Positions 347 through 42,300 of a stretch of 64,000 nt of DNA are shown one piece after another. Origin of the DNA: Clostridia bacterium (lineage in GTDB: Bacteria; Bacillota; Clostridia; Christensenellales; CAG-138); NCBI GenBank assembly GCA_030533005.1, contig JAUNJX010000006.1, forward strand, positions 14,146-78,145, read 5' to 3'. Position numbers and translations under genes: made by a program. Position 1 is the first letter of the stretch. Each line of letters begins with the position of its first letter. The notes under the pieces are model-generated. The model did not search any database. It had not been told where the DNA came from and worked only from the letters and a program-made list of their open reading frames with translations.

Positions 347-350
347 ATAC

Positions 351-21013: not shown

Positions 21014-21064
21014 CTTTTCACCCTCCAAACATAGTTTTGCCCGCGCCGCCAAAGGTTTTGGGCA

Positions 21065-21099
21065 TAAAAAAAGAGCGTCGCAGATGCAATCTGCGGCGC
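21065..21099 (-). terminator. intrinsic terminator-like hairpin inside the glnN 5' leader (candidate attenuator)
   Basis: The RNA reads GCGCCGCAGAU-UGC-AUCUGCGACGC (10 of 11 bp) followed by UCUUUUUUUA. It sits between the predicted promoter and the glnN RBS. Confidence 0.55.
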
Positions 21100-21122
21100 C
21101 ATTGCCGTTTCTCAATGTTGGG

Positions 21123-21151
21123 ATTTTAGCACTGCGGCGCACGACTGTCAA
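21123..21151 (-). promoter_or_regulatory. sigma-A type promoter for glnN
   Basis: On the minus strand, TTGACA-17 nt-TAAAAT. Confidence 0.55.
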
Positions 21152-21169
21152 CACCTTTTTTGCGCATCG

Positions 21170-25639: not shown

Positions 25640-25670
25640 ATTTTTCATATATTATTGGGAGGTCATCGGC

Positions 25671-26880: not shown

Positions 26881-27462
26881 ATGCAGGAGCGGGCGCAAAA
26901 AAGCATACTGGTAGTATCCGGGACGGATAAGCTCAGGGAAGCGCTTTCGTCCTTATTGCCTTGCGCCGAATTCGTGCTATATACCGCCGCCTCCTGCGCC
27001 GAGGCGCGGCGCATGCTGCTGCGCTGCCAATACGACGTTATTCTTATCAGCGCCCCGCTCCCGGATGAATTCGGCACGACGTTCGCTTTGGATCTTGCGC
27101 AGCGCAATTCCTCCGGCGTCATTTTGCTGGTGCGCGGCTCCTTGTTTGAGGAAATATGCGCTAAGGTGGAAAGCTACGGCGTGCTGACGGTGGAAAAGCC
27201 CACGCCGCGCCCCGTCCTCTACGCCGCCATACGCATGGCCGCCGCCATGCGCGCGCGCCTTGCCCGCGCCGAAGCGCAAACACAAAGCCTGACCGCCAAA
27301 ATGGAAGAAATACGCATCGTCAACCGCGCCAAATGGGTGCTGATCAAATATCTCAATATCGACGAGGCGCAAGCCCACCGACACATCGAAAAGCAGGCCA
27401 TGGATCGGCGCTTATCCAAGCGGGAGGTCGCAGAAAAGATCATCAGCACCTATGAAGGATAA
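26881..27462 (+). CDS. ANTAR-domain RNA-binding antiterminator with pseudo-receiver domain
   Basis: 193 aa. The C-terminal EEIRIVNRAKWVLIKYLNIDEAQAHRHIEKQAMDRRLSKREVAEKII is an ANTAR domain. The N-terminal receiver-like fold has Ser where the phospho-acceptor Asp is expected (DVILISAP) and no acidic pair. Confidence 0.85.
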   Translation: MQERAQKSILVVSGTDKLREALSSLLPCAEFVLYTAASCAEARRMLLRCQYDVILISAPLPDEFGTTFALDLAQRNSSGVILLVRGSLFEEICAKVESYGVLTVEKPTPRPVLYAAIRMAAAMRARLARAEAQTQSLTAKMEEIRIVNRAKWVLIKYLNIDEAQAHRHIEKQAMDRRLSKREVAEKIISTYEG

Positions 27463-28535: not shown

Positions 28536-29660
28536 CTATGCTTCCACCTGCCGCTTGCCGGTATAGCGGAAAGCCGTAAAGGGACGATAGCTATAGCACA
28601 TCCCCGCTTCACCGCAAAGCGCGGGCGCTTTATCCATATAATACACCGTCACGTCCAGCCCGTCCTGCGTCCGCCGCGCCGTATAATCCAAAACGCCGTC
28701 ACAGGCAAAAAGCCGTTCGTCCAAAGCCGCGATGCGCGCATCCCGGCCGCGCACCCACAGGCGCTTAAGAAAGCTGCCGCAGGCGCAGGGCGCAAGCGTA
28801 AGCTTCGCCATATCCCCCGTTCGGTAGCGCAAAAGCGGCATAGCTTCCCTATTCAGCGTCGTCACCACCAGCTCGCCCCATTCGTCATAGACCACCTTTC
28901 CCTCCTTGACGATCTCCAGATACAGGTCATTTTCCCGTATGTGCATGCCGTCGTGCGCGCCGCAATCGATGGCGCAGCCATAGCCCGTTTCCGTCATGCC
29001 AAAATGCGAATACGCTTCCACCCCCATGCTTCGCAATCGCGCAAGCAGCGCGCGCGGCACATAGTCGGAGGAAAGCAGCGCCTTTTGCGGCAGCTCTTGC
29101 CCCCTTGCGCGCAAAAGCGCGCATAAGCACAGCATCTGCACGGGCGTGCCGACAACGCTTTGCGCCACGGGCAATGACGCCGCGTCCCGCAGCAAGCCCA
29201 CGCGCAAAGGCGTCGCACCCATACGCGCAAGTCCCCGCGCAAGCAAATCGCCCACGCCGTCCGGCGTTTCGCAGGGCAGGCACATGGCGCAGCTTTCCCC
29301 GCGCGCCGCCACAAGCCGCATGCCATGCGCAAAATAATCCACCGTATGCTCTAAATCGTCCCGCGTAAAATACAGCCGTTTGGGCGCGCCCGTCGTGCCG
29401 CTCGTCTGCTGGGTGACGATGCGCTGTATGCCGTCACTCGATACGCAGAGCATCCGCGCGCCCTGCTCTTTCAGATCGTCCGCCGTGATAAAAGGCAGCG
29501 CCTCAAAATCCGCAAGCGTCCGCACGGCGGGATAGTGCTTATAGAACAGCGACGCGCGCGCTTTCTCCACCGTTTGGGAAAGCAAAGCGGGCAGCGCCGC
29601 GCCATAAGCCGCCCTGCCCTCTATCCCATGCTTTTCCTTTATCCAATCATCCAGTATCAT
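28536..29660 (-). CDS. PaaK / coenzyme-F390-synthetase-like adenylate-forming enzyme
   Basis: 374 aa. P-loop-like TSGTTGAPKRLYFT and overall PaaK architecture. It is the last gene of the accessory operon and shares an ATGA overlap with the radical SAM gene. Confidence 0.8.
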   Translation of the reverse strand: MILDDWIKEKHGIEGRAAYGAALPALLSQTVEKARASLFYKHYPAVRTLADFEALPFITADDLKEQGARMLCVSSDGIQRIVTQQTSGTTGAPKRLYFTRDDLEHTVDYFAHGMRLVAARGESCAMCLPCETPDGVGDLLARGLARMGATPLRVGLLRDAASLPVAQSVVGTPVQMLCLCALLRARGQELPQKALLSSDYVPRALLARLRSMGVEAYSHFGMTETGYGCAIDCGAHDGMHIRENDLYLEIVKEGKVVYDEWGELVVTTLNREAMPLLRYRTGDMAKLTLAPCACGSFLKRLWVRGRDARIAALDERLFACDGVLDYTARRTQDGLDVTVYYMDKAPALCGEAGMCYSYRPFTAFRYTGKRQVEA

Positions 29661-30949
29661 CTGCCCCGGTACAGCGTCCTTCCGTCCGCAGCGCTCAAAT
29701 TATAAGCGCAAAACGGGATAAGCTCCACCTTGCCCTCTTTCCGCCGCACAACGTTGATATAGCAGCGCTTGAGCCGCTCTATGTCCAGCGTCCACGCGTC
29801 CATAAAGGCCATGGCGGATACGGCAAGCGTCTGATTTTCGAGCTTGTCTAAAAACGCGTCGAACACATCCGGCTGCGCCTTCGGTTCGCGCACGCGCCGC
29901 GCGCCCGACCAGCGTTTGGCCACGAATTTTCGTGACCGCGCCGACGCGTCCGCAGACGTTCCGCAGCCGCAGCCCGCGCCGCAGCGTTTGAGCGACCCGT
30001 CCTCATTTTGCATGAAGTTGGCGGAAAAGGAGCAATGCGCGTCCTCGGCGTTGCCCGGCGCAAAATCCACCGCGCGCATGCGTCCTTGCGTCTGCGTTTC
30101 TATATCGCAAAGCAGCTTCGGCAGCGTATAGCGTGCAGCGTCCACCTCACAGCGTCCAAAGCGGCTCATGGGCTGAAAGTGCACGCCGCGCACCGCAGGC
30201 ATGCGCGAAAGCGCATACTCCAGTATCGCGCCGACCTGATCGTCGTTGACGCCCGCCGCCACGGTAGGTACCAGCACCACGCCCACGCCCGCCTTTTCGC
30301 AATGCTCTATGGCCGCAAGCTTGGTTTGCAATAACGCTTTGCCGCGCAGGATTTCATAGCTGTGCTCATTCATGCCGTCAAATTGCAGAAAGACGCAGTT
30401 GAGACCCGCATCCGCAAGGCTCCGGATATAGGCTGCATCCTCCGCAATGCGGATTCCGTTGGTGTTAAGCTGAAAAAAGGAGAAGCCCTTCTCTTTGCCT
30501 ATGCGGATGATCTTAGCAAGATCGTCCCGTACGGTGGGCTCGCCGCCGGAAAGTTGGATGTTGAAGGGGCCGCCCATCTCCATCATCCCGTCAAAGCAGG
30601 CCGTGATATCCTCCATGGGCATATCCGCGCCCTGCCCGGCCTTTGCAAAGCACACAGGGCAGCCAAGGTTGCATCTTTGCGTCACCTCCAGCAGCACGCA
30701 GCATGTGCGCTGCGCGTGCGCCGGGCACAGCCCGCAATCGTAAGGGCAGCCCTTATCCTCCCCACGCGCCGGACGCACCGGCGCCACGGCGGGATGTTCT
30801 TCCCCCCACGCCGCATAATCCCCCTGCCATATGAGCGTTTTAAACGCGCCGTGCTCCGGGCAGGTTTTATATAGATAGGTGTCGCCGTTCTCCATGCGCC
30901 GCTGTGCTTGGAGCACACGCAGGCACACGGGACATACGCTTTGGGTCAT
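29657..30949 (-). CDS. radical SAM enzyme with N-terminal zinc-ribbon (MJ0619/Tes-like architecture)
   Basis: 430 aa. N-terminal CPVCLRVLQAQ...YKTCPEHGAF, CxxxCxxC cluster motif CNLGCPVC, and a C-terminal Cys-rich stretch CGAGCGCG. Confidence 0.85.
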   Translation of the reverse strand: MTQSVCPVCLRVLQAQRRMENGDTYLYKTCPEHGAFKTLIWQGDYAAWGEEHPAVAPVRPARGEDKGCPYDCGLCPAHAQRTCCVLLEVTQRCNLGCPVCFAKAGQGADMPMEDITACFDGMMEMGGPFNIQLSGGEPTVRDDLAKIIRIGKEKGFSFFQLNTNGIRIAEDAAYIRSLADAGLNCVFLQFDGMNEHSYEILRGKALLQTKLAAIEHCEKAGVGVVLVPTVAAGVNDDQVGAILEYALSRMPAVRGVHFQPMSRFGRCEVDAARYTLPKLLCDIETQTQGRMRAVDFAPGNAEDAHCSFSANFMQNEDGSLKRCGAGCGCGTSADASARSRKFVAKRWSGARRVREPKAQPDVFDAFLDKLENQTLAVSAMAFMDAWTLDIERLKRCYINVVRRKEGKVELIPFCAYNLSAADGRTLYRGR

Positions 30950-31236
30950 GTATTGATCTCCTCATCCAAAAAATGCTCGAATGCCTGCTTTTTCTCCTGC
31001 CACGCCGCATCCGGATAGCTTACCTTGAAGCGGGTGTCGCCCAGCACGCCCTTGATCTCCATGCCGCCGCCGCGCACAAAATAAAAGGGGCGGCGGTAAT
31101 TGCGCTTGATCTCGACCTCCCCGAAAGGAGAGAGCGCCGCTACAGCCGCCTCGTCCATCACAAAGGGGGACGCATAGGCATAGGTCTGCGCGTCCACAAA
31201 ACAGTTTTCGCTTTTTTCTACCTGAAAGGCGCTCAT
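30946..31236 (-). CDS. hypothetical 96-aa protein
   Basis: The ORF is coupled by ATGA overlaps on both sides. I recognise no motif. Confidence 0.6.
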   Translation of the reverse strand: MSAFQVEKSENCFVDAQTYAYASPFVMDEAAVAALSPFGEVEIKRNYRRPFYFVRGGGMEIKGVLGDTRFKVSYPDAAWQEKKQAFEHFLDEEINT

Positions 31237-32354
31237 GCAAGTATCTCCTTCACGGCCTGCACCACGCTCTCCACCTCCTCGCGGGAGGTGAAGCGGGACA
31301 TGGAAAGCCGCACCGAGCCGCGCGGGTCAAAGCCCGCATAGGGCGGCAGCAGCGGCGCGCAATGCAGTCCCGTGCGGCAGATGATATCGTAGGCTTCATT
31401 GAGCACCTCGCCCATATCCGCAGGCGGCATGGCAGAGGTGAACGCCATGACGGGCGTGCGCGCGCCTTCGACGCGCACGGGCACAGCGCCGGATGAGAGC
31501 AAGCCCTCCTCTAAAATCGCCATGTTGCGATCCAGCGCCGCCGCGTCCAAAGGATGCGCAGCAAGCCATTGCAGGCTGTACGCTAAGCCTTCCATGCCCT
31601 GCTCGTTGGGCGTGCCCGCCTCCAGACGCAAGGGCAGCGTTTCGGGCATCGTCCAGCTATCGGAATGTATGCCAGTGCCGCCTGTATAGACCGGCGAAAG
31701 CTTGATATCCTCCCTTACATACAGGCAGCCCGTCCCCTGTGGGCCAAGCAGATATTTATGCCCCGTGACGGCCAGCATGTCGATCCCCCACGCCTCGGGC
31801 AGCACAGGCACAAGCCCCATGGTCTGCGACGCGTCGAGCACCGTAACCGCGCCCGCCTTTTTGCAAACCGCCGCAAGCGCCGCTGCATCGTTGATGGCGC
31901 CCGTTACGTTGCTCGCGTGCAAAAACGCGCACAGACGCGGCGCATGTTCCTTTACGGCGCGGGATAAGGTTGCCTCGCTTAGCCGCCCGTCCTTTTGTAC
32001 GGGCAGCACGATAAAGTCCTTGATGCGCCCCTGTTGTTTCAGGGCATACAGCGGGCGCAGCATGGAATTATGCTCCGCAGCCGTCGTCAGCGCCACATCC
32101 TCTTTCTTCCACGGGAAGCCCAAGAGGGCGATGTTGAGTGCCTGCGTGGAATTCTGCGTATAGACGATGCGCGCTTTATCCTGCACGCCAAGCAATGCAG
32201 CAAGCAGCGCACGCGCGTCCAAGGCAGCGTTTTCTTCACCCGACGCGCGGTGCGAAGCACCCGGCAGCCGCTCCATCACCGCCGCCATATGCGCCCCTAA
32301 GCCGGGCGCTTTGGGAAAGCTGGTCGCGGCGTTGTTCCAATACAGCTTGCTCAT
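31233..32354 (-). CDS. class-V aminotransferase / cysteine-desulfurase-like (NifS/CsdA-like) enzyme
   Basis: I prefer the start at 32354 (MSKLYWNNAATSFPK...), which gives an ATGA overlap with the upstream stop. The region ...AVTGHKYLLGPQGTGCLY... contains the PLP-lysine context. Confidence 0.8.
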   Translation of the reverse strand: MSKLYWNNAATSFPKAPGLGAHMAAVMERLPGASHRASGEENAALDARALLAALLGVQDKARIVYTQNSTQALNIALLGFPWKKEDVALTTAAEHNSMLRPLYALKQQGRIKDFIVLPVQKDGRLSEATLSRAVKEHAPRLCAFLHASNVTGAINDAAALAAVCKKAGAVTVLDASQTMGLVPVLPEAWGIDMLAVTGHKYLLGPQGTGCLYVREDIKLSPVYTGGTGIHSDSWTMPETLPLRLEAGTPNEQGMEGLAYSLQWLAAHPLDAAALDRNMAILEEGLLSSGAVPVRVEGARTPVMAFTSAMPPADMGEVLNEAYDIICRTGLHCAPLLPPYAGFDPRGSVRLSMSRFTSREEVESVVQAVKEILA

Positions 32355-32773
32355 GCGAACACGCCCTTTTCCATCAGCATGTTCATGATAAACTCGAACG
32401 CATCCTGTACGATGGGCAGGCACACGGAAATGCTCTTGGAAAAATCGCCGTTTACGATATTTCGGCAATCACACCCGCCATGCTTTTGCGCGACGTTTTG
32501 CATAAACCACTCCACATAATCCGCGATCATCCTTTCCACGTCGGGATGCGCGGGCTCCTCCATATCGCCCTGCCCCGTAAAAAGGCCGATGATGGCGCAG
32601 CCCGCCGTGAGCACCCCGCAGGTATGCCCCGTGCGTCCCATACCGCGCGTAAGGCCGCTCATGGCGCGAACAAGATCGGCGTTTTCCATGCCTTGGGTGT
32701 CCAGCGCAAGCTGCATCATGATCTGGCTGCACGCCATACCCGCGCGCGCAAGCTCCAACATTCTCTCCTCCAT
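32351..32773 (-). CDS. C_GCAxxG_C_C family protein
   Basis: 140 aa from the ATG at 32773, preceded by an AGGAGG RBS. The family motif is seen as HTCGVLTAGC, plus downstream CDC and C residues. Confidence 0.8.
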   Translation of the reverse strand: MEERMLELARAGMACSQIMMQLALDTQGMENADLVRAMSGLTRGMGRTGHTCGVLTAGCAIIGLFTGQGDMEEPAHPDVERMIADYVEWFMQNVAQKHGGCDCRNIVNGDFSKSISVCLPIVQDAFEFIMNMLMEKGVFA

Positions 32774-32786
32774 GCTCCGCTTCCTC

Positions 32787-33335
32787 CTATATTTTCTGAT
32801 AGACCGCCAGCGTGTACCGCTTTGCGCCGCAAAGCGGAAAGGGTGCGTCGTTGTTCCATAACCAGCGCGCGCCAAAGGCGCGCAAGGCATCCGTAGCGTC
32901 CCGCTCCCGCAGCAGCGCAAAGCCCTCCATCGCTTCCGCTGCGCCCAAATCGCCCAGCAGCAGCAGCCCCTTTGGCGCGAGCACGCGCAAAAGCTCCTCG
33001 CGCGCCGCGTCCCATTTGCCCGTTTCCTGCAAGGGGTAGCGCATGCAGCCCATATGGGCGATAGAAAATGCGCCGTCAGCAAAGGGCAGCGCCGCCGCGT
33101 CCGCCTGTACAAATTGGGCTGGCGGGCAGCGCTTTTTCGCAATTTGCAGCGCCGCATCCACCAAGTCTATTCCCGTTACCTCACAACCCGCCCGCGCAAA
33201 TACGGCGGCGGCTTCGCCCGTGGAGCAGCCTATGTCCAATACGCTTCCCCGCGCCTCCCCCAAGAGCCAAAGGATGCAGAATACATCCTCCACGCCGCCG
33301 GCGCAAAGCCACGCGTCCGACGCGTACAGGCTCAT
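32787..33335 (-). CDS. class I SAM-dependent methyltransferase
   Basis: 182 aa with motif I VLDIGCSTGEAA and an acidic loop GIDLV. Confidence 0.8.
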   Translation of the reverse strand: MSLYASDAWLCAGGVEDVFCILWLLGEARGSVLDIGCSTGEAAAVFARAGCEVTGIDLVDAALQIAKKRCPPAQFVQADAAALPFADGAFSIAHMGCMRYPLQETGKWDAAREELLRVLAPKGLLLLGDLGAAEAMEGFALLRERDATDALRAFGARWLWNNDAPFPLCGAKRYTLAVYQKI

Positions 33336-33553
33336 TTATCCTCCAAGGCGCGCTCCACCTGCAAGATCTTGCCCAGCGCCAGCTCCTCGGGGATGAAATA
33401 CTGGCCGCACTGCGGGCAGACCGGCATTTCGATAGGGAAATCGTTGCCCATGTACATGAGCGTCACGGGGCCTTTTACCATTTCCACACCGCATTTTTCG
33501 CAGCGCAGCTCGCCCTTGGTAAGATCATAGCTTGCATGATAATTCGTGCTCAT
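33332..33553 (-). CDS. small zinc-ribbon protein (73 aa)
   Basis: MSTNYHASYDLTKGELRCEKCGVEMV...MPVCPQCGQYFIPEE. The ATG at 33553 makes an ATGA overlap with the upstream stop; the ORF track starts earlier. Confidence 0.7.
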   Translation of the reverse strand: MSTNYHASYDLTKGELRCEKCGVEMVKGPVTLMYMGNDFPIEMPVCPQCGQYFIPEELALGKILQVERALEDK

Positions 33554-35742
33554 ACGCGCACCTCCATACGGTGGCTGTAGGCTCGCTCCACCTGATACCC
33601 GTCCTTTTCGGGATGATAGTACACCCATACGGTGATATGGCCTATGCGTTTATGGGCGATAAAAAGCCCGGTTTCGCCGTGTAGCAGCTTATCGTTGGTG
33701 CGCTCCGCCGCCTCGACGGCCTCGCGGATATGCTGTTCGAGTATCAGCCGCTCCTCCAGCTTTTTGGCTACATCCTCGCTGTAGTAGAGCGGAAAATGCA
33801 GCAGCCACGGCTTCTCCTCCTCACCGTACACATCCTTCAAAATCCCAAGGCGCAGCCTCTCCCGGTTGTCGCGGCGTTGGGAATAGGTGGGCGGCTCATG
33901 CTCTGCCATGCCGTAGGCAAGCTCCAGGATATGCACGGCCTTGCCGCCGTTTTTGCTAAAGCGATCCCGGCAATTCATGCAGTAGGTCAAATACATCGCG
34001 CCATCGGGTGCCGCAAGCGCCGCAGCCTCGTTAGCGACCTCCGGGTTCGCGTATTGCGTATAGCCGCCAAAGCCGCAGCAGCCGGTGGTTGCCCCGCTGT
34101 ATTTCTGCTCCGTAACGATGCAGCCCATCCTGTGCAGCAGCTCGCGCACGGCGTCCCGTACAGCAGGCATATCCCGCGCGCCGCAGGCGTCGTGCACACA
34201 CACGTCGCAGGCGATATGCTCTATCGGCAGCGTTTCAAGCAAAATATCCCATATGCCGATGCAATCCGCCCACTCCAGCGTTTTCATGCAGGTGGGACAG
34301 GCGACGATCAGCTTAGGCTTACCCAAGCGCGCCCATTCCGCCTTGAGCTTTTCCTGCGTATCGGCAAAGAGCTGTTCCCTGCCTGCCCACAGCGCGCCTA
34401 TGCCGCAGCAGCCAAGCAGAATGCCCGTTTGCGATTCGCGCTTCAACAGATCGTCGAACACCCTTTTGACAAGCTCGGGCGCGGACGCGCCCAGCTGACA
34501 GCCCGGAAAAAAAAGATACTTGCATGTATCGCTTCCCGGCGCGGGCTTTGCCAAATACGACGGGCCGTTGCTGTCTGCAAGATCGTCCAAGGCAAAATCA
34601 AAGGGCCATTGGGGCATGTGATTGGTTGCAGCCATAACGGCGCGGGACTGCATGAGCAGCGCCCCCAGATTCATGCCGCCGGGGCACAGCTTTTCACACT
34701 GCCCGCAAAGGCTGCATGAATTGATGGCGGTATTCGCCGTGCGGTTGCCCATGCTCATGGAGATGTTGGTCACGACCTCACGGGTAAACTGCCGGGGATA
34801 GGTCTTATAATGCTGTAGAAAAGCGCATGCGTCCACGCAGCGCATGCAGGTGCATTGGATGCAGCGGGCAGCCTCGGCCTTTGCCCAATCCGCGTCCTTT
34901 TCCCCTGCCGCCATGCCCTGCGGCTCGACGCCCTCGGTTTTTACATACAGGGTCGTTGTAAAAGGCCCCTCCTGTTCACGCCCATAGCGCAGGTTGACCT
35001 TTTTGAGATATCGATCTACAGAGGTCGCGGCCTTCTTGCCGCCCGCGATACAGCAAAGCACGCCCGCATCCGGGTTTGCACAAGCGCCGCAGGCAAACAG
35101 CCTGCCGCCCGCCTCCACCTCGCCCGTATCCTCTATGATCTCGACCGGCGCATCCGCGCCCATGGCAAGGATCACCGCATCAAAATCCGCCGCGTTTTCC
35201 GGCTCCATATTTGTATGGTATTGGATCTCTATAGGATAGTCCGCAAGCACGGCACAGTCCGCGGCAAAGCAGGCAAGCGCCGCTTCGTCCGCCTTGAGCG
35301 TGCCGCCCAGCGCGTCCGATCTTTCAAACAGCGTGACATGCACGCCCTTTTTTCCTAACTCAAGCGCCGCCGTGACGCCGCTTACGCCGCCGCCGATCAC
35401 CGCCGCCGTATCGCTGCGCCGGGGCAAAAAGGATCTTCGCGCCTTTCGCGTGCCCTCGCGCACCGCCGCTTCCTCGATGGCGCGCATATCGATAGCGCCC
35501 CCCAAGTCCTTTCGCGCGCAAACCGCCATACAGGGTGCAGTGCACAGGGCGCTCAACGTGCGCGGCAAGGGCACGACCTTCGCGTACAGCTCCAGCGCCG
35601 CCGAAAAATCACCCTTGCTTACAGCCTCGCACACCGCGCGGCACTCCACATGCAACGGGCATCCCGCCATGGCAGGCGGGGGCTGCTGTTGGGTACAGCG
35701 CGCTTCGATCTCATATAGGGTTTTCTGGTCGATCATCTGCAT
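33550..35742 (-). CDS. multidomain FAD/NAD(P)-binding + 2x[4Fe-4S] + double CCG-domain oxidoreductase
   Basis: 730 aa from the ATG at 35742, with GGTGGAG 8 nt upstream. It has a GltD-like Cys cluster, dinucleotide fold VIGGGVSGVTAALEL, ferredoxin motifs CIQCTCMRCVDAC / CSLCGQCEKLCP, and CCG-type motifs (FFPGCQL, CPTCMKT, GCCGFGG). Confidence 0.85.
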   Translation of the reverse strand: MQMIDQKTLYEIEARCTQQQPPPAMAGCPLHVECRAVCEAVSKGDFSAALELYAKVVPLPRTLSALCTAPCMAVCARKDLGGAIDMRAIEEAAVREGTRKARRSFLPRRSDTAAVIGGGVSGVTAALELGKKGVHVTLFERSDALGGTLKADEAALACFAADCAVLADYPIEIQYHTNMEPENAADFDAVILAMGADAPVEIIEDTGEVEAGGRLFACGACANPDAGVLCCIAGGKKAATSVDRYLKKVNLRYGREQEGPFTTTLYVKTEGVEPQGMAAGEKDADWAKAEAARCIQCTCMRCVDACAFLQHYKTYPRQFTREVVTNISMSMGNRTANTAINSCSLCGQCEKLCPGGMNLGALLMQSRAVMAATNHMPQWPFDFALDDLADSNGPSYLAKPAPGSDTCKYLFFPGCQLGASAPELVKRVFDDLLKRESQTGILLGCCGIGALWAGREQLFADTQEKLKAEWARLGKPKLIVACPTCMKTLEWADCIGIWDILLETLPIEHIACDVCVHDACGARDMPAVRDAVRELLHRMGCIVTEQKYSGATTGCCGFGGYTQYANPEVANEAAALAAPDGAMYLTYCMNCRDRFSKNGGKAVHILELAYGMAEHEPPTYSQRRDNRERLRLGILKDVYGEEEKPWLLHFPLYYSEDVAKKLEERLILEQHIREAVEAAERTNDKLLHGETGLFIAHKRIGHITVWVYYHPEKDGYQVERAYSHRMEVRV

Positions 35743-35785
35743 TCGTTTTTCTCCACCTAACCGATCTGTTTCATATTGTAATTCC

Positions 35786-35794
35786 ATTATAGCA
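35786..35794 (-). promoter_or_regulatory. extended -10 element TGcTATAAT (candidate promoter of the accessory operon)
   Basis: Read on the minus strand, between the mop terminator and the RBS of the oxidoreductase gene. Confidence 0.4.
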
Positions 35795-35807
35795 CAGGCA
35801 TTGCATC

Positions 35808-35840
35808 AACAAAAGAAAGGGACGCCCGTTTGGGCGTCCC
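35808..35840 (-). terminator. intrinsic terminator after mop
   Basis: GGGACGCCC-AAAC-GGGCGTCCC (9-bp perfect stem) followed by TTTCTTTTG on the minus strand, 14 nt after the mop stop. Confidence 0.75.
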
Positions 35841-35853
35841 AATATAAGGTAGG

Positions 35854-38598
35854 TTACTTGCCCATCGCGTCGATGGCTGCCTTGACCTTTTCGGGCTTGG
35901 CGGGAATCTCGAACACGCGCGCGCCTGTAGCGTCATGGATGGCGGACAGGACGGCGGGATGCACGGCGGTGAGGGGGCCTTCGCCGCAGCCGGCAGCACC
36001 GTAGGGGCCGTCGGGACGGTAGGTCTCGGTGAAGATGAGGTTATAATCGTCGGGGATATCCAAGATGGTGGGGATACCCGCGCCAAGCAGCGTCGTATGC
36101 TTCTTATAATCCTCAAAGTCCTCGGTGAGCGCCAGACCCATGCCCTGTGCGCAGCCGCCGTAGGTGGAGCCTTCCACGACCAGCTTGTTGATGATGGTGC
36201 CGTAATCGGCAACGGTGGTGAACTTGATGATGCGGGTCTTGCCCGTCGCCATATCCACCTCCACCTCGGGGATAAAGAGCTGGTACATGTAATTGGAGAA
36301 GGGCGCGCCCTGTGCCGTGTCCGCGTCGCAGTCGGAGCACATGGAGGCCGTCCAGGAGCCCTCATAATAGGTGGGGATCTTCTCTGCTTCCATTTCGGCA
36401 TAGGTGCGATAGGTGCCATCGGGCTTCTTCATCGCCGCAAGCAGCATTTCGGAAGCTACGCGCACCGCGTTGCCGGTAACGGTGTTGGAGCGGCTGCCGC
36501 CCGCGGGGCCGGAGGCCGGGGTGTAGGCGGTGTCGTTCATCACGAGCTTGATGCGCTCCGGCGTGAAGCCCGCTGCGCGCAGCGTCTCATGCGCCATGGC
36601 GAGCGTACCCATATCAGCGCCCTGGCCGTGATCCTCCCAAGAATCGTATACGGTGACCGTATTGTCAGGATTGAGGCGGATGTTGGCGAACGAGCTATCC
36701 TTGCCGTCCAGACCGCAGCCGTATACGCCCACGGAGAAGCCAACGCCGTATTTCTTGCTGCCGTCGCTTTGAGCGTTCAGTTTCTTGGCGCGCTCCTTGG
36801 CCTCGTAATACACGGGGCGGGCTTTCTCAAACATGCCCTCTAAGCAGTACACCTCGGGGGTCTGGCCGGTAGGCGTGGTAGCGCCCTCACGGTAGATGTT
36901 CTTATAGCGCAGCTCGAAGGGATCCATGCCGAGCTTTTCCGCCAGCACATCCATGCAGACCTCGCTGCCCATGAAGGACTGCGGCGAGCCGTAGCCACGG
37001 AACGCGGAGCCCCATACATGGTTGGTGCATACGCAGTAGCTTGTGTTGCGGATATTGGGGATATCGTAGCCTGCACCCGTGAACTGGGAAAGGCGCATGG
37101 TCAGCAGATCGCCAAACTCGGAATACGGGCCGTGATCCACATAGTTTTCGCCCCACATACCCAAGAGCTTGCCGTCCTTGTTGGCGGCCATCTTGACGTG
37201 CATGAAGGCGGGAGAACGCTTGCCGGTGTAGGTCAGGTTCTGATACATATCATAGACCAGCGAAACGGGACGGCCATCCAGCGCCAAGCATGCCACACCC
37301 AGCAGGGATTCAGAGGTGGGGGAGAACTTGTAGCCGAAGGTGCCGCCGGCGTTGTTCTGGACGATGCGCAGCTTGTCGCCCTCGACGCCGATGCCGGTGC
37401 CGATCATGGCGGCATGCAGATGGATGCCGACGGACTTGGAGTGGATGGTCAGACGGCCTTCCTCATCCATGTAGGCATAGCCGCAGTCCGGCTCCAAATG
37501 CAGATGGGGCTGACGGGAGCAGTAGGATTCGATCTCGGCCACGCAATCGGCCTTTTGGAAGATGGGTTCTACCTCCTCGCCCTTGGCGCAGGTGGTATCG
37601 TAATAGACGTTGGGCGTGCCCGGATGGATCTCGATCGCGTCGGGCGCCTTTGCTTCCATCGCGCTCATGTAAGCGGGCAAGGGTTCGATGTCCACCTTGA
37701 CGGCCTTGGCGGCAGCCTTGGCATGCTCCACGGTATCCGCAGCGACCATGGCGACCGCGTCGCCGATCTGGAACACCTTCTCATCGCAGAGGATGGGACG
37801 ATCCCAGCCGTCGCCCTTGTTGTGGGTGGGGAAGAACACCAAACCGTTGATGCGGTTGTTGCCCTTGACGTCCTTGGCGGTAATGACCTTGTATACGCCG
37901 GGCATCTTTTCCGCTTCGGAGAAATCGATGCCCTTGATCTTGCCGTGCGGTATGTCAGACTGCACCAAGGCAAGGCGTGCGGTACCCTCGGGCATCTTGA
38001 GCGCGTCGTCCGCGCCGAAATCCCATGTGCCCATAACCTTCGCCATGGCGGAGGGGCGCACGAACTCGGTGCCTACGATCTTGTTGCCGACGGGCTTGAA
38101 GATCAGATCTTCCTTCTTCATTTCGCCGCGCATGACCTTGGCGGCGTCCATAACGGCGTCTACCAGAGGCTTATAGCCTGTGCAGCGGCAAAGGTTTTTG
38201 TGGTCGTAGAACCACTGGCGAACCTCCTCGCGGGTGGGGGAAGGATTCTCGGCCAACAGCGCCTTCGCGCTCATGATAAAGCCGGGCGAGCAGAAGCCGC
38301 ACTGCGCGCAGCCGTGACCCATCCATGCAAGCTGCAAGGGATGCAGGTTTTCGGGGCAGCCGACGCCTTCGATGGTCTCGATTTGCGTACCGTCCTCAAG
38401 CTTGCTCATCTTGAGGATACATGCACGCTGCGCCTTGCCGTTGACCAGCACCGTACAAGCGCCGCACTGGCCTACGCCGCAGGATATCTTACAGCCCGTA
38501 AGGTGCTCCTGTTCGCGCAGAACCTTGGCAAGGGTATCGTTGGGATCGACGATAATCGCCTTGCGCGCCCCATTGATCGTTAATACCTTTTTGATCAT
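35854..38598 (-). CDS. mop: molybdopterin-dependent aldehyde oxidoreductase, Mop type (2x[2Fe-2S] + Mo-pterin domains, no FAD domain)
   Basis: 914 aa. It is collinear with the Desulfovibrio gigas MOP sequence as I remember it (CGVGQCGACTV, GCAQCGFCSPGF, CRCTGYKP, GDGWDRPILCDEKVFQ, GGTFGYKFSPTSE, WGSAFRGYG). Confidence 0.9.
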   Translation of the reverse strand: MIKKVLTINGARKAIIVDPNDTLAKVLREQEHLTGCKISCGVGQCGACTVLVNGKAQRACILKMSKLEDGTQIETIEGVGCPENLHPLQLAWMGHGCAQCGFCSPGFIMSAKALLAENPSPTREEVRQWFYDHKNLCRCTGYKPLVDAVMDAAKVMRGEMKKEDLIFKPVGNKIVGTEFVRPSAMAKVMGTWDFGADDALKMPEGTARLALVQSDIPHGKIKGIDFSEAEKMPGVYKVITAKDVKGNNRINGLVFFPTHNKGDGWDRPILCDEKVFQIGDAVAMVAADTVEHAKAAAKAVKVDIEPLPAYMSAMEAKAPDAIEIHPGTPNVYYDTTCAKGEEVEPIFQKADCVAEIESYCSRQPHLHLEPDCGYAYMDEEGRLTIHSKSVGIHLHAAMIGTGIGVEGDKLRIVQNNAGGTFGYKFSPTSESLLGVACLALDGRPVSLVYDMYQNLTYTGKRSPAFMHVKMAANKDGKLLGMWGENYVDHGPYSEFGDLLTMRLSQFTGAGYDIPNIRNTSYCVCTNHVWGSAFRGYGSPQSFMGSEVCMDVLAEKLGMDPFELRYKNIYREGATTPTGQTPEVYCLEGMFEKARPVYYEAKERAKKLNAQSDGSKKYGVGFSVGVYGCGLDGKDSSFANIRLNPDNTVTVYDSWEDHGQGADMGTLAMAHETLRAAGFTPERIKLVMNDTAYTPASGPAGGSRSNTVTGNAVRVASEMLLAAMKKPDGTYRTYAEMEAEKIPTYYEGSWTASMCSDCDADTAQGAPFSNYMYQLFIPEVEVDMATGKTRIIKFTTVADYGTIINKLVVEGSTYGGCAQGMGLALTEDFEDYKKHTTLLGAGIPTILDIPDDYNLIFTETYRPDGPYGAAGCGEGPLTAVHPAVLSAIHDATGARVFEIPAKPEKVKAAIDAMGK

Positions 38599-38696: not shown

Positions 38697-39110
38697 ATGC
38701 AACACCCCAATGAGGAAATCGAGCTGCACATGGCGAACTGTATCGATTATCTTGCCGCCGTCGTCAACGCCCAAAATACGGCGGATTACGGTCAGCTTCA
38801 CGCAAAAATGCTCAACGCGCTCAATGCGCGGATGGATCTGATCTACGATAAGATCGAGACATCGCCCGAAAGCGATCAGCTGGCGGCGGAGGCGGTGACG
38901 ATGCTCGTCGAGCAGCCCCTTTCGGGTCGTATCTATACGCGCCATCTGCCCATGGACTACAAGGAAAACAGCAACGGCATCACCATACAGGGTGAGGATT
39001 TTCAGGGCAAGCCCGCTTCCATCGTGTTTTTATCCAATAACGCCGTTCAAAAAATCAAAGACCTGACCGGTCAGGGATGGGAAAAGCCGCGCTGCCATCA
39101 TGACGACTGA
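38697..39110 (+). CDS. hypothetical 137-aa protein, divergent from mop
   Basis: ORF with an AGGAGG RBS. The composition is protein-like, but I recognise no family motif. Confidence 0.55.
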   Translation: MQHPNEEIELHMANCIDYLAAVVNAQNTADYGQLHAKMLNALNARMDLIYDKIETSPESDQLAAEAVTMLVEQPLSGRIYTRHLPMDYKENSNGITIQGEDFQGKPASIVFLSNNAVQKIKDLTGQGWEKPRCHHDD

Positions 39111-39262: not shown

Positions 39263-39303
39263 AACACAGCCCCGTGTGTACGCACGGGGCTGTGTTATTT
39301 TTT
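39263..39303 (+). terminator. intrinsic terminator
   Basis: AACACAGCCCCGTG-N6-CACGGGGCTGTGTT followed by ATTTTTTT. Confidence 0.65.
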
Positions 39304-39366: not shown

Positions 39367-42300
39367 CTACAGCGTCGTCTCGCCGGAAAAAACGAGCGCA
39401 ACGCCGCCGGTCAAGGTCACGGTATCATCGGTATACCGGATATAGAGATCGCCGCCCAGGAGCTTAACAAGGATGGTTTCGCCCTTTTGGCAGAAGCCGT
39501 TTTCCACTGCCGCCACCACAGCCGCGCACGCGCCGCTGCCGCAGGCCCAGGTTTCCCCGCTGCCCCGCTCCCATACCCGCATGCGAAGGGCGTTGTTGCC
39601 TAAAGGACGCACGAATTCCGTATTGACGCGTTCGGGGAAGATAGCGGCGTTTTCAAACAAGGGGCCGATAGCGGCCACATCCAGCGTATCCACATCGTCA
39701 TGGAACACCACGGCATGCGGATTGCCCATGGAAACGCAGGTGATCTCATACCCTTCGCCTATATCCACAGCCCGCTTTACAACGCGCGCGCCCGGCAGCG
39801 TCACGGGGATATCCGCAGCCAGCAGCGAGGGTCTGCCCATGTCCACCGTGGCGTGCGTCACCACGCCGTTTCGCTTGTGCAGACTGACGCGGCGTATGCC
39901 GCTGGGCGTTTCGATATCCATGCAGGTCTTATCCACAACGCCCTGATCGTAAGCGAGCTTTGCCGCACACCTCAGCGCGTTGCCGCCCACCTCGCCCGCG
40001 CTTCCGTCAAGGTTGTAGATATCCACGCGGATATCCGCCCTTTGGGACGGATACAGGAGTGCCACGCCCTCCGCGCCCACGCCAAAATGCCTGTCGCTTA
40101 GGCGCACGGCGAGCCCGGCCGGGTTCGCAATGTCATTATCCTTGCCCCAAACGCAGATATAATCGTTGCCGCACGCCTGCATCTTATAGAAGGTGATACG
40201 CTGACGCGCTTTGCGCAGCGCATTGATATCCACAAGCTCGATGTTGCTTTGGCTGTAGCGCTCCTTTAAGCTGCCCGCCACGGCGTTCGCGGTATCGATG
40301 CTCGTAAGGCAGGGTATGCTCTTTTCCACGGCCTTTCGCCGTATGCGCACGCTGTCCCGCGTGGGGATGCGCCCCTTGGCGGAGGTGGAGATCACATAAT
40401 CGATCTTGCCGCTGTCCAACAGCTCCAGTATCTGCTCGCTGCCCTCGTGAAGCTTGGGCACCTTGGTCACGGGGAAGCCAAAGTTCTCGATGGCGCGAGC
40501 CGTACCTGGCGTCGCGTACAGGGTGCAGCCCACGTTATAAAGCCGCTTTGCGGTAAAGCCGATCTCGTGCTGGTCGCTGTCGCGTACGGAGAGCAGCACG
40601 CCGCCCGCCCGCTTCATCTGATACCCCGCCGCCACAAGACCCTTATAGAGCGCCTCCGGCATGGTGGAGGCAAGGCTCAACACCTCGCCTGTGGACTTCA
40701 TTTCGGGGCCAAGCTGCGTATCCACATCCGTCAGCTTTTCAAAGGAAAACACAGGCACCTTGACCGCCACATACGGCGATACGGGATATAGACCCGTGCC
40801 GTAGCCGAGGTCTTGCAGCCTTTCCCCCAGCATCACGCGGGTCGCAAGCTCCACCATGGGCACGCCCGTCACCTTGCTGATGTAGGGTATGGTGCGCGAC
40901 GCCCTTGGGTTGACCTCGATGACATACAGCTCGTTTTGATAGATAAGATACTGCATGTTCACGAGGCCGACTGCGTGCAGACCCAGCGCAAGCTTGCGGG
41001 AGGATTCCACGATACAGCTTTGCATTTCATCGTCCACGTTCCACGCCGGATACACGGCGATAGAATCGCCCGAATGCACGCCCGCCCGCTCGATATGCTC
41101 CATAACGCCGGGAATGAGTATGTTTTCGCCGTCGCAGATGGCGTCCACCTCGATCTCCGTGCCCATCAGATATTGATCGATCAACACGGGATTGGTGATG
41201 CCTTGCGCAAGTATGATCGCCATGTATTCATGGATATCCGCGTCGTTGAAGGCGATGATCATGTTCTGCCCGCCCAGCACATAGGAGGGACGAAGCAATA
41301 CGGGGTAACCAAGATCATTCGCGGCCGCAATCGCCTCCTCCTCCGTCATAACGGTCTCACCCTTGGGGCGCTTGATGTTAAGCGCGTTCAAAAGCGCGTC
41401 AAAGCGTTCCCTGTCCTCCGCCGCGTCGATGCCGTCCGCGCCCGTGCCCAGTATGCGCACGCCTTGGTCGGATAAAAAGCGCGTAAGCTTGATGGCGGTC
41501 TGTCCCCCAAAGGCCACCACGGCGGCGCAGGGCTTTTCCGTCGCAATCACGCCCGCCACGTCCTCCGGCGTCAGGGGCTCAAAATACAGCCTGTCCGCCG
41601 TATCAAAATCCGTTGAGACCGTCTCGGGGTTATTGTTGACGATCACCACCTCATAGCCGCACGCCTTCAGCGCCCATACGCAGTGCACGGAGGCGTAGTC
41701 GAATTCGATCCCCTGCCCTATGCGGATGGGGCCGGAGCCGAACACCATCACGGTTTTGGCCGTGCTGTTGCGGGAGGCAAGAAACGCCGCGGCCTCGTTT
41801 TCCTCGTCATAGGAGGCGTAGAAATACGGTGTTTGCGCGGCAAACTCCGCCGCACAGGTGTCCACCATCCGGTATACCGGCAGGCGGGGCGCTTCGATGG
41901 GCTCCCCCGCTATGCGCGCTATGACCTTGTCGGGATATCCCGCCTTTTTGGCCGCAAGATACAGCGCCTGCGTCATAGGTTCCGCGCTCAAGCGTTCTTC
42001 GAGTGCAACAAGCTTGGCAAGCTTATACAAAAACCACCTGTCGATGCCCGTAGCCTCGTGGATCGTATCGATCGCAATGCCCGCGTGCAAGGACGCAAAC
42101 ACGGCAAACAGCCTTTGATCGTCGCAAACGCGCAGGCGCGCGCATAATTCGTCTTGAGAAAGCGCCATAAAGTCCGAACGCAGACAGTCATGGCCGATTT
42201 CAGCGCCGCGCACGGCCTTCATCAGCGCCTCCTCAAAGGTCGCGCCGATGGCCATGACCTCCCCCGTCGCCTTCATCTGCGTGCCAAGGGTGCGTTTGGC

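Follow-up and report, generated by a model that had tools for sequence, protein, structure and literature searches.

A conserved gene neighbourhood of a Mop-type aldehyde oxidoreductase: a candidate flavo-Fe-S redox partner and a TrsS-centred branch possibly linked to its cofactor

To our knowledge, the native high-resolution structures of the aldehyde oxidoreductases of D. gigas and D. desulfuricans show nothing beyond an ordinary Mo-MCD cofactor and two [2Fe-2S] clusters, and we know of no physiological substrate of Mop. The D. gigas enzyme has been reported to be active without a sulfido ligand, as an acknowledged 'exception', and in the quest for its 'missing flavo-domain' flavodoxin ranks as no more than a 'putative' physiological partner (PMC10223205). 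For the sulfuration of the molybdenum cofactor (Moco), XdhC/NifS4 provide a precedent (PMC2997495). In catalysis by the tetraether lipid synthase Tes, a bond forms between the substrate radical and a sulfide of a cluster (PMC13459092).

The locus described here lies in a 64-kb stretch of DNA (the window) and consists of nine genes on the minus strand, running from 38598 down to 28536 in the order mop, g1 to g8. The initial annotation had described nine genes, the eight after mop being joined by six ATGA overlaps and one 13-nt gap, which is borne out by all coordinates checked: the junctions at 33550-53, 33332-35, 32351-54, 31233-36, 30946-49 and 29657-60 all read ATGA on the minus strand, and g3 and g4 are separated by 13 nt, GAGGAAGCGGAGC. 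The mop gene (35854-38598, minus strand) encodes a molybdopterin (MCD-type) aldehyde oxidoreductase of 914 residues, which scores 1539 bits against NF045668 (pterin_aldehy; cut-off 1100) and aligns end to end with the D. gigas and D. desulfuricans enzymes (1194 and 1200 bits; PDB 1VLB/1SIJ and 1DGJ). Its Pfam domains are Fer2, Fer2_2, Ald_Xan_dh_C, MoCoBD_1 and MoCoBD_2; as annotated initially, it has two [2Fe-2S] domains, and the Pfam scan found no FAD-binding domain. It also matches TIGR03313 (XdhD-type). A terminator-like hairpin on the minus strand (35809-35840) directly follows the mop stop codon; the 9-bp stem noted earlier was recovered by a terminator scanner (35840-35819, eight G-C pairs, then TTTCTTTTGT). 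The TGcTATAAT element at 35786-35794 (minus strand, 5' of g1) indeed reads TGCTATAAT, a consensus match only, and since no good -35 hexamer accompanies it, for which reason a promoter scan passed over it, we grade it as an extended -10-like element only; g1 itself is preceded by a Shine-Dalgarno sequence, GGTGGAG. In all 56 loci measured, mop is set off from its downstream neighbour by a non-coding gap (median 136 nt), and by a crude test about 20 of these 56 have a hairpin and T-run after mop.

Gene order was compared in loci extending about 10 kb to each side, including 49 TrsS-anchored loci with full flanks; counts are raw and ignore kinship. Among these 49, mop occurs in 42, the g1 family (DICL) and the DVU_1557 family in 44 each, and the C-GCAxxG-C-C and DVU_1553 families in 43 each. 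TrsS-anchored loci with mop come from Bacillota, Acidobacteriota, Fusobacteriales and Anaerolinea, in line with the synteny across phyla suggested by the initial annotation, and the accessory set is kept despite rearrangement (L009, L032, L066, L085). Chance falls far short of explaining the arrangement: these genes, in this order, return in dozens of loci across several phyla. The co-occurrence is also specific to orthologues of Mop: in Mop-anchored metagenome loci, 5/5 orthologues sharing 45% identity or more have the set beside them, against 0/24 of the more distant Fe-S/Moco relatives (26-39% identity). The eight accessory genes, all present here, are not one fixed unit as had been implied, the NifS-like gene (g5) being found in only 21/49 loci; the core comprises DICL, DVU_1557, the methyltransferase, C-GCAxxG-C-C, TrsS and DVU_1553. 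The neighbourhood is already catalogued by NCBI family names, as verified by matches above the curated NCBIfam cut-offs for diclust_near_Sec, DVU_1557, DVU_1555, TrsS, DVU_1553 and Mop (pterin_aldehy). The names given in the initial annotation (DVU_1553, DVU_1555, DVU_1556 and DVU_1557) proved real and matching, with g3 falling below the DVU_1556 cut-off, and DVU_1559 is the D. vulgaris Aor (PMC10920352). For the accessory families, the literature, like the initial annotation, gave no experimental function.

A further recurrent neighbour, c8 (38697-39110, plus strand), lies outside the stretch annotated initially, yet is part of the conserved neighbourhood. This small beta-rich ORF of 137 residues is divergent from mop, has a C-terminal tail of the type G-x-G-x-D...C(-x-x-H), and has no match in Pfam or NCBIfam. 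It occurs in 35/49 full-flank loci and in 34 of the 42 with mop, placed divergently from mop, co-directionally upstream of it or within the operon.

The gene following mop, g1 (DICL; 33550-35742, minus strand), encodes a flavo-Fe-S protein of 730 residues with 37 cysteines (773.6 bits against NF045663, diclust_near_Sec; cut-off 530; Pfam Fer4_20, NAD_binding_8, Fer4_17 and CCG). Its parts are an N-terminal Fe-S region of the GltD type, a single FAD-type Rossmann fold, a ferredoxin domain with 2x[4Fe-4S] and two HdrD-type CCG motifs; to the C-terminal stretch of about 130 residues no domain is assigned. The Fe-S, FAD-type and CCG parts of the initial annotation stand, but an NAD(P)H site is apparently absent: the protein has only one Rossmann beta-alpha-beta unit (residues 107-152), and the roughly 175 residues left before the dicluster domain suggest that GltD's NAD(P)H sub-domain is missing. 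DICL also matches TIGR03315 (YgfK). Next comes g2 (33332-33553, minus strand), a DVU_1557-family protein of 73 residues (95.6 bits against NF045645, cut-off 60; Pfam DUF7479), in agreement with the CxxC...CxxC zinc-ribbon noted earlier. With mop followed by DICL in 52/53 loci and DICL by DVU_1557 in 65/65, the three form a nearly invariant gene triplet, a detail that is new. DICL may supply the FAD-less Mop with its flavin and Fe-S wire, the role that YgfK presumably has for XdhD in E. coli. Electrons from aldehyde oxidation would then leave DICL via its CCG module (HdrD-type) and reach an acceptor of the thiol/disulfide kind, which may reside on the small cysteine proteins DVU_1557, C-GCAxxG-C-C or c8.

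The hub of the remaining genes is g7 (TrsS; 29657-30949, minus strand), annotated initially as a radical SAM enzyme; its 430 residues score 587 bits against NF045646 (TrsS; cut-off 490). It is a paralogue of the tetraether lipid synthase Tes/GDGT-MAS (PDB 7TOL, E 2.4e-79; TM 0.79 for the predicted structure), and its positions invariant in alignments fit the four Tes centres: C6/C9/C30/H33 and C68/C72/C75/H78 (3Cys+His each), C93/C97/C100 (radical SAM) and M380/C396/C414 (3Cys+Met). The three genes that complete the core were assigned largely as before. The 182-residue g3 (32787-33335, minus strand) is a class-I SAM methyltransferase by Pfam (Methyltransf_25/11) and, in a comparison of 81 sequences (the window and 80 loci), groups with the methyltransferases from 55 of them, although at 72.6 bits against NF045667 (cut-off 155) it is a short, divergent relative of the DVU_1556 family. 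The DVU_1555-family C-GCAxxG-C-C protein g4 (32351-32773, minus strand; 140 residues, 6 Cys) scores 153.3 bits against NF045669 (cut-off 103; PF09719), and the PaaK-like adenylate-forming ligase g8 (28536-29660, minus strand; 374 residues) scores 333.7 bits against NF045666 (DVU_1553; cut-off 300), with phenylacetate-CoA ligases and AjiA1 as PDB matches. Family members named as selenoproteins exist for both TrsS and C-GCAxxG-C-C (PMC13188914).

TrsS is followed by the DVU_1553 ligase in 62/66 loci, and judging from HMM matches it is naturally fused to several of its neighbours, again a new detail. HMM-confirmed fusions join it to NF045665 (P0137), a MocA-like domain (P0133), the DVU_1556-type methyltransferase NF045667 (P0140, P0144), the DVU_1553 ligase NF045666 (P0141), a DUF5714/MbdU-like domain (P0142) and g6 (P0014); the ligase is fused to TrsS in P0166, P0169 and P0170 as well. 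Some of these proteins are metagenomic, and gene-calling errors are possible in principle, but several independent architectures recur. TrsS and its fusion partners would share one substrate, possibly a carboxylate adenylated by the ligase and methylated by the methyltransferase; TrsS itself may perform a Tes-type radical C-H activation, with the intermediate parked on a sulfide of the C-terminal [4Fe-4S] cluster.

In many loci the stretch from C-GCAxxG-C-C to TrsS also includes genes for NF045664 (named 'XdhC family aldehyde oxidoreductase maturation factor') and NF045665, an NTP transferase of the MocA+HD type; an NTP transferase occurs in 40/49 full-flank loci, in 31/49 the ligase is succeeded by a CobC-like histidine-phosphatase gene, and ModE, ModA and MoeA-like genes are nearby in some. 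Since MocA- and XdhC-type genes are interleaved, the MocA type sometimes being fused to TrsS, the product of the TrsS branch would most likely be a cofactor component or maturation step needed by Mop. A metabolic pathway, in which TrsS and the methyltransferase make or modify an aldehyde, Mop oxidizes it to an acid and DVU_1553 turns the acid into an acyl-adenylate or CoA thioester, while DICL and the small cysteine proteins carry electrons, is rather unlikely in our view. It would match the carboxylate product class of Mop to the substrate class of PaaK-like ligases, it employs typical tailoring enzymes (radical SAM enzymes, methyltransferases, ligases), the CobC-like and NTP transferase genes could serve small-molecule nucleotide chemistry, and Mop is not known to have a particular physiological substrate or more than a 'putative' redox partner. 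However, no conserved transporter, thioesterase, CoA-transferase or downstream catabolic gene was found at the locus, the nameable interleaved genes are Moco maturation factors, the ligase is bound to TrsS by adjacency and fusion and not to Mop, and mop is transcriptionally punctuated from the remaining genes. The Moco maturation genes inside the operon elsewhere and the fusion of TrsS to an NTP transferase favour the putative maturation and electron-transfer module proposed initially over a purely catabolic pathway; the NifS-sulfido part of that proposal fares less well.

The NifS-like class-V aminotransferase g5 (31233-32354, minus strand; 373 residues) is, in agreement with its families and best PDB matches (cysteine desulfurases, CsdA), a type-II (SufS/CsdA-like) cysteine desulfurase or selenocysteine-lyase-like PLP enzyme with HK and GLHCAP motifs, below the cut-offs of both TIGR01977 (299 bits, cut-off 377) and SclA (226 bits, cut-off 525). 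It is followed by g6 (30946-31236, minus strand), a beta-rich domain of 96 residues considered at first to lack recognizable motifs. Alignments show it to be homologous to a domain at the N-terminus of the longer TrsS proteins, with one invariant cysteine (C12); the AlphaFold2 model (pLDDT 88) has no significant match among PDB folds. Fusions of g6 and TrsS number 14 among the best 120 TrsS relatives, and in Blautia producta DSM 2950 the two form one 565-residue ORF. By homology, g6 is a split-off, free-standing TrsS N-terminal domain that always travels with the NifS-like gene, likewise a new detail. The NifS-like gene is optional, and its presence does not depend on XdhC in the locus (odds ratio 1.1, p=1). 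In every case g6 comes next (25/25), and after g6 TrsS (26/26), so the NifS-like product more likely serves TrsS than a sulfido ligand of Mop. Where present, it may load sulfur onto Cys12 of g6, from which the C-terminal [4Fe-4S] cluster of TrsS would be supplied or mended.

Resembling selenium-dependent molybdenum hydroxylases, Mop could instead receive a labile S or Se on its molybdenum from the NifS-like/g6/TrsS proteins and XdhC-type chaperones, lost in aerobic purification. The best families of g5, the named selenoproteins, the XdhC/NifS4 precedent and the 'exception' of D. gigas would fit, but we consider it quite improbable: g5 and g6 occur in under half of the loci, published kinetics need no sulfido (PMC10223205), no selD homologue was detected in the window or 80 loci with a SelD sequence as query, the aligned regions of the 80 loci hold no in-frame TGA, and the ligase and methyltransferase are left unexplained. 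It is very improbable that TrsS is a bacterial tetraether/membrane-spanning-lipid synthase like Tes with only an incidental or indirect linkage to mop, despite its strong likeness to GDGT-MAS, acidobacterial loci in the set (L064, L070) and the fact that it would pass the BLAST criterion used to nominate 'bacterial Tes homologs' as brGDGT synthases (PMC8941075), as it scores 327.6 bits against the Tes model (cut-off 450) while exceeding its own cut-off, carries a hypervariable Cys-rich insert between the radical-SAM core and C-terminal domain, keeps a clade-specific mop linkage across phyla and rearrangements, and is fused to an NTP transferase, methyltransferase or ligase, with no lipid-biosynthesis domain among fusion partners or scanned recurrent neighbours.

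With a probability of roughly 0.4, we propose that DICL is the missing redox partner of Mop and that a sulfur-fed branch centred on TrsS makes or matures a Mop-linked cofactor. Several observations speak against this: a PaaK-type ligase would find no obvious carboxylate on Moco, the terminator between mop and DICL would be odd for a stoichiometric redox subunit, and the 64 kb contain no XdhC-type, DVU_1551-type or CobC-like genes. In a few loci (L010, L016, L022, L028) TrsS occurs without the other genes. Given the ordinary Mo-MCD structures and the activity without sulfido, a tailored pterin or ligand would have to be labile or not reside on Mop. The terminator after mop would allow much stronger expression of the structural gene than of the accessory genes. 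Tentatively, the nine genes together with c8 may represent one instance of a widely conserved, Mop-dedicated system with two sub-modules.

The nine genes of the cluster run on the minus strand from 38598 to 28536, as could be established by ORF listing and direct reading, and the finer features described for them in the initial annotation are also present. The aldehyde oxidoreductase gene mop ends at 35854 and is followed by a terminator, a 9-bp hairpin (8 GC) with a T-rich tail at 35840-35809 on the minus strand, and by a TGcTATAAT element, read as TGCTATAAT at 35786-35794. The best start of g1, the first of the eight accessory genes g1-g8, lies at 35742, downstream of GGTGGAG, yielding a protein of 730 residues. 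All six ATGA stop/start overlaps claimed for the cluster are real, and the single 13-nt gap lies between g3 and g4. Searched against Rfam with gathering thresholds, the whole window returned no RNA family, and hence no Moco or other riboswitch, and ARAGORN detected no tRNA in the window.

Mop scores 1539 bits against the curated equivalog NF045668 (cut-off 1100). Its residues 1-910 align with residues 1-906 of 1SIJ/1VLB, and it aligns end-to-end with D. gigas MOP and D. desulfuricans MOD (1VLB, 1DGJ), to which it is a full-length orthologue with identical domain order. The Pfam domains Fer2, Fer2_2, Ald_Xan_dh_C, MoCoBD_1 and MoCoBD_2 are found in a single chain, and the same scan gave neither FAD_binding_5 nor CO_deh_flav_C, confirming two [2Fe-2S] domains and the absence of an FAD domain, as in those two enzymes. 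Judged from these matches, it is a Mop-type molybdopterin aldehyde oxidoreductase, and putatively a Mo-MCD enzyme. After about 40 years of study, the redox partner of the D. gigas enzyme is named only as 'putative', with flavodoxin in that role; the enzyme is an exception to the sulfido rule, reportedly needing no sulfido ligand, and the word 'operon' is absent from its review (PMC10223205). No discussion of genes accessory to D. gigas MOP or D. desulfuricans MOD was found in the searchable literature on the enzyme.

The DVU_155x family names given in the initial annotation proved to be real NCBIfam names. Curated cut-offs are passed by g2 (NF045645, the DVU_1557 zinc-ribbon family; 95.6 bits versus 60; Pfam DUF7479), g4 (NF045669, DVU_1555 C-GCAxxG-C-C; 153.3 versus 103) and g8 (NF045666, the PaaK-like ligase DVU_1553; 333.7 versus 300), and likewise by g1 (NF045663, 'diclust_near_Sec', here DICL; 773.6 versus 530) and g7 (NF045646, 'radical SAM (seleno)protein TrsS'; 587 versus 490). 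A 2026 review (PMC13188914) credits TrsS to Haft & Tolstoy 2025 (mSystems). The g3 product reaches the DVU_1556 methyltransferase model NF045667 only below its cut-off (72.6 bits versus 155), covering just positions 23-126 of the 213 in the profile; its gene occupies the expected position, and by sequence it groups with the methyltransferases of related loci. For g8, an assignment as PaaK phenylacetate-CoA ligase was rejected in favour of NF045666 (77 bits versus 646 for TIGR02155, 97 versus 700 for NF041878), and g4 found no match among PDB sequences. All named equivalogs are sub-threshold for g5 (TIGR01977 299 versus 377, SclA 226 versus 525, SufS 157 versus 475, CsdA 129 versus 494); Pfam Aminotran_5 matches at 200.9 bits, and in the PDB it best matches cysteine desulfurases and CsdA. 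Its 'GHKYL' and 'TGLHCAP' motifs we take to be those of the PLP lysine and the catalytic Cys loop of the class-V family, and by sequence g5 is a type-II desulfurase-like enzyme (SufS/CsdA).

A GltD-like FeS/FAD-NAD(P) module had been described for DICL. A single Rossmann beta-alpha-beta, apparently of the FAD type, is present, whereas the NAD(P)H domain of GltD is apparently missing, since the spacing leaves no space for a second nucleotide domain. GltD itself was rejected as an assignment, with matches spanning only about residues 3-203 and all scores far below the cut-offs.

The near-consecutive numbers of the NCBIfam models suggest that NCBI curators derived these families from one neighbourhood, and DVU_1559 encodes the Aor of D. 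vulgaris (PMC10920352). Compared with DVU_1551-DVU_1559 of D. vulgaris Hildenborough (NF045663-NF045669, NF045645, NF045646), Mop, DICL, DVU_1557, DVU_1555, TrsS and DVU_1553 of the present locus pass the cut-offs, and the gene order agrees by locus-tag numbering. The locus differs in having a short, sub-threshold methyltransferase and an optional NifS-like/g6 pair, and in lacking the DVU_1551 NTP transferase and an XdhC-type factor, neither of which was found by tblastn in the 64-kb window. The locus is an instance of an already catalogued neighbourhood of uncharacterised gene families. In agreement with the earlier statement that no experimental function is known for them, literature searches with the DVU locus tags, and with C-GCAxxG in combination with radical SAM, XdhC or aldehyde oxidoreductase, gave no functional study, and in a broad text search 'TrsS' was matched only by acronyms of other meaning. 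New, we believe, are the assignment of g6, the network of fusions, the division into sub-modules and the clade specificity.

A scan anchored on TrsS, with one genome per species, gave at least 590 confirmed matches, from which 80 loci were kept, 49 of them with full flanks. The hosts of these 80 loci belong to Bacillota (Clostridia, Negativicutes, Tissierellia, Peptococcaceae), Acidobacteriota, Fusobacteriales, Nitrospirota and Anaerolinea, bearing out the suspected synteny across phyla; Nitrospirota is represented by L076 alone, a contig of 2.8 kb with only TrsS and a partial ligase gene, and the link to sulfate reducers is based on the DVU family names. Among the matches listed, hosts of TrsS include Blautia, Ruminococcus and Intestinibacter from the human gut. 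In the 49 full-flank loci, mop was found 42 times, DICL and DVU_1557 44 times each, C-GCAxxG-C-C and DVU_1553 43 times each, the DVU_1551 NTP transferase 40 times and an XdhC-type factor 25 times. The usual order is mop-DICL-1557-(methyltransferase)-C-GCAxxG-C-C-[XdhC type, DVU_1551 NTP transferase]-[NifS-like, g6]-TrsS-1553-[CobC-like phosphatase]. Adjacency counts point to sub-modules within the neighbourhood, as DICL follows mop in 52 of 53 cases, DVU_1557 follows DICL in 65 of 65, g6 follows the NifS-like gene in 25 of 25, TrsS follows g6 in 26 of 26 and DVU_1553 follows TrsS in 62 of 66. The association outlasts rearrangement, with TrsS lying upstream of the mop gene in two loci (L032, L066) and the order DICL-1557-mop-TrsS in L085; in a few loci TrsS occurs alone. 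A non-coding gap is always present 3' of mop (median 136 nt), and about one third of the loci have a hairpin and T-run there.

Anchoring on Mop instead, a metagenome scan covered relatives from 68% down to 26% identity. DICL, DVU_1557 and TrsS accompany all five Mop orthologues that have at least 45% identity and sufficient flank, whereas these three and C-GCAxxG-C-C were found beside none of the 24 fused Fe-S/Moco relatives of 26-39% identity, for each of which 8 kb or more of downstream sequence was available; the loci of these distant relatives gave only generic XdhC-like or MocA-like matches. The initial annotation would have been refuted by a lack of co-occurrence with mop-type genes, and this contrast, like the 42 of 49 TrsS-anchored loci, shows the co-occurrence to exist.

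Additional genes accompany the cluster in some loci. A histidine-phosphatase resembling alpha-ribazole-phosphatase follows the ligase in 31 of the 49 loci (e.g. L004 12723-13337; TIGR03162, 152.8 bits versus 162.9) and the DVU_1551 transferase includes an HD phosphohydrolase domain; taken together, these suggest that the pathway may involve phosphate or nucleotide chemistry. A small Nitro_FeMo-Co (NifX/NifB-like) protein is inserted in a rearranged form of the cluster (L009 8838-9239; also L019 and L034, Pelotomaculum). The TrsS loci L009 and L019 share one Pelotomaculum MAG contig (JBMNHK010000004.1), and in one of the two there is no mop within 10 kb. In L024 (6666-7439) and related Oscillospiraceae loci, a DUF5714 protein like 'metal-binding double selenoprotein MbdU', weakly similar to C-GCAxxG-C-C proteins, is encoded 3' of DVU_1553.

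The conserved neighbourhood also includes c8, a small plus-strand ORF divergent from mop (38697-39110), present in 35 of the 49 full-flank loci at variable position. Its family (L002-L080) is unannotated and was matched by no Pfam or NCBIfam model; a core of about 80 residues has the conserved pattern D..TG....R.LP....E..N...L.GE and a C-terminal G.G.D...C tail. A word-indexed homologue search gave only three matches for c8 and only nine for g6. Between c8 and the next ORF, a perfect 15-bp hairpin with T-runs (39263-39296) looks like a bidirectional terminator bounding the cluster on the c8 side. That ORF (39367-43401, minus strand, 1344 aa) comprises, by Pfam, a complete carbamoyl-phosphate synthase large subunit (CarB) with a C-terminal DapF (diaminopimelate epimerase), and could be a true fusion or the result of a lost stop codon. 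It belongs to flanks of nitrogen and pyrimidine housekeeping genes unrelated to the cluster, with CarA, CTP synthase, YitT, an ANTAR regulator and two glutamine synthetases. The latter, of type III (18920-21154, minus strand) and type I (25668-26876, plus strand), lie less than 8 kb apart, the ANTAR response regulator (26881-27462, plus strand) coming after the second one. The G+C content is 0.46-0.53 at positions 1-16000 versus 0.53-0.61 at 16001-64000, and this step at about 16 kb may be a border between regions of differing origin.

The 96-residue g6 product aligns with an N-terminal extension of about 95 residues in long TrsS proteins, and such g6+TrsS fusions make up 14 of the 120 closest TrsS relatives among the matches listed, including a single 565-residue ORF in the complete Blautia producta genome. 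It has a single invariant Cys (C12), and its model (pLDDT 88) gave no significant match in a fold search against the PDB, weak matches being TBP half-domain-like and McrD-like (E >0.1). Other TrsS fusions were identified in a search of 50%-identity representatives, in which the g6-seeded profile took in the TrsS columns of the fusions, making it effectively a TrsS/Tes search. TrsS was found fused to the DVU_1551 NTP transferase (P0137; 429 and 635 bits, both above cut-off), to a MocA-like domain (P0133), to the DVU_1556 methyltransferase in either order (P0140, P0144), to DVU_1553 (P0141 and three others) and, at its C-terminus, to DUF5714/MbdU-like domains with weak C-GCAxxG-C-C similarity (P0142, P0154). 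In the 670-residue TrsS of Blautia pseudococcoides (P0041), a Cys-rich repeat linker (TAECCNR/TAECCDN, alignment columns ~100-210) separates the g6-like domain from the TrsS core, and many homologues have hypervariable CC/CCCC-rich inserts at TrsS residues ~320-365; linker and inserts may bind metal or sulfur.

TrsS is related to the archaeal lipid enzyme GDGT-MAS/Tes (E 2.4e-79), on which its predicted model superposes with a TM-score of 0.79 (7TOL). The four metal centres of Tes are a rubredoxin-like 3Cys+His site, an N-terminal 3Cys+His cluster, a CX3CX2C radical SAM cluster and a C-terminal 3Cys+Met cluster, on whose sulfide the first substrate radical is parked (PMC13459092). The invariant residues of TrsS (C6/C9/C30/H33; C68/C72/C75/H78; C93/C97/C100; M380 with C396/C414) fit these centres in kind and order as candidate ligands, with a radical SAM core and, putatively, a rubredoxin-like N-terminus and N- and C-terminal cluster motifs as in Tes. 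TrsS differs in staying below the cut-off of the Tes model (327.6 bits versus 450), in its Cys-rich variable insert, in being bacterial, and in its place within a molybdoenzyme operon and its fusion to enzymes outside lipid synthesis. No in-frame TGA, the mark of a selenocysteine form, was found in g7 or opposite Cys in the aligned regions of the 80 loci; the '(seleno)protein' family name permits Cys forms. Neither the window nor the 80 loci gave a selD-like gene with an approximate SelD sequence as query.

Each part of the neighbourhood resembles a known system in some respects. In E. coli XdhD-YgfK(-YgfM), an FAD-less fused Fe-S/Moco protein is encoded beside a large GltD-like Fe-S flavoprotein. 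Mop and DICL match the corresponding TIGR03313 and TIGR03315, both far below cut-off, but DICL adds an HdrD-type dicluster and two CCG motifs and seemingly has no NAD(P)H sub-domain. By domain content alone, the ferredoxin dicluster, the two CCG motifs and the adjoining small Cys-rich proteins resemble HdrD/DsrK proteins, which act on (hetero)disulfides or DsrC, although DICL has a different N-terminus and no membrane partner. The single invariant Cys of g6 and its constant place beside a type-II desulfurase recall SufE/CsdE/SufU and the sulfur-acceptor logic described for MOSC proteins (PMC2997495), but g6 has no sequence or significant fold similarity to these, and its fusion partner is a radical SAM enzyme. 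Cmo-type genes, too, are radical SAM genes kept beside an aldehyde oxidoreductase, in their case tungsten AOR, and with the tungsten cofactor oxidoreductase maturase TIGR04317 the likeness is in concept only, as TrsS belongs to another radical SAM family (56 bits versus 380) and Mop to another oxidoreductase family. As in the XdhC/NifS4 and PaoD/MocA maturation systems, many of the related loci have Moco genes within the operon (a MocA+HD transferase, NF045665, and NF045664, 'XdhC family aldehyde oxidoreductase maturation factor') and a cysteine desulfurase is encoded here; however, six further core genes have no counterpart there. The initial annotation had pointed to NifS-like enzymes as Moco sulfurases. 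This logic is weakened, since the gene tracks TrsS and g6, independently of XdhC (odds ratio 1.1, p=1), and Mop of D. gigas reportedly has no sulfido need (PMC10223205).

We propose, with a probability of about 0.4, a two-part system dedicated to Mop, in which DICL would be the redox partner and TrsS the hub of cofactor supply or maturation. DICL and DVU_1557 would form the missing flavin/Fe-S partner, as suggested by the XdhD/YgfK parallel with its weak TIGR03313/TIGR03315 matches and by flavodoxin being just a putative partner (PMC10223205). The branch centred on TrsS would serve in cofactor supply or maturation, Moco factors being interleaved with and fused to it, and the desulfurase with the single-Cys carrier g6, wired to TrsS, might feed or repair its C-terminal-type cluster. 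Native Mop structures show an ordinary MCD, which argues against this two-part system, as do the lack of a carboxylate on Moco for the g8 ligase and the few loci with TrsS alone. The same holds for the sulfido ligand being reportedly unneeded (PMC10223205).

A possible though doubtful alternative is that Mop catalyses a single step of a small-molecule pathway. Rather unlikely, in our estimate, is a further form of the cofactor idea, in which the TrsS hub, with the ligase, methyltransferase, MocA-type NTP transferase, C-GCAxxG-C-C/DUF5714 protein and sulfur-fed g6 as members, would make an undescribed nucleotide-linked or sulfur-containing cofactor component or labile ligand for the Mop orthologues in vivo, and DICL, not flavodoxin, would be the physiological acceptor of Mop. 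Classical Mop enzymes were purified in air, so that such a component would have gone undetected. A labile S or Se ligand on Mop we consider improbable.

The similarity to GDGT-MAS would let TrsS pass the filter (BLASTP e <1e-50, identity >20%) by which 456 'bacterial Tes homologs' were listed as candidate brGDGT synthases (PMC8941075), but the linkage to mop argues that such matches are not lipid enzymes, and lipid synthesis is a most improbable role for TrsS. Lipid-biomarker inference from bacterial Tes homologs should leave out mop-linked TrsS. Mop orthologues have six to ten uncharacterised genes firmly linked to them, and the fusion and adjacency data name candidates among them, i.e. DICL as the 'missing flavin' partner, a sulfur relay from the NifS-like enzyme via g6 to TrsS, and a radical SAM hub. 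If the TrsS hub does make an undescribed Mop cofactor component, molybdoenzyme cofactor chemistry would have taken over a Tes-type radical SAM enzyme from lipid chemistry.
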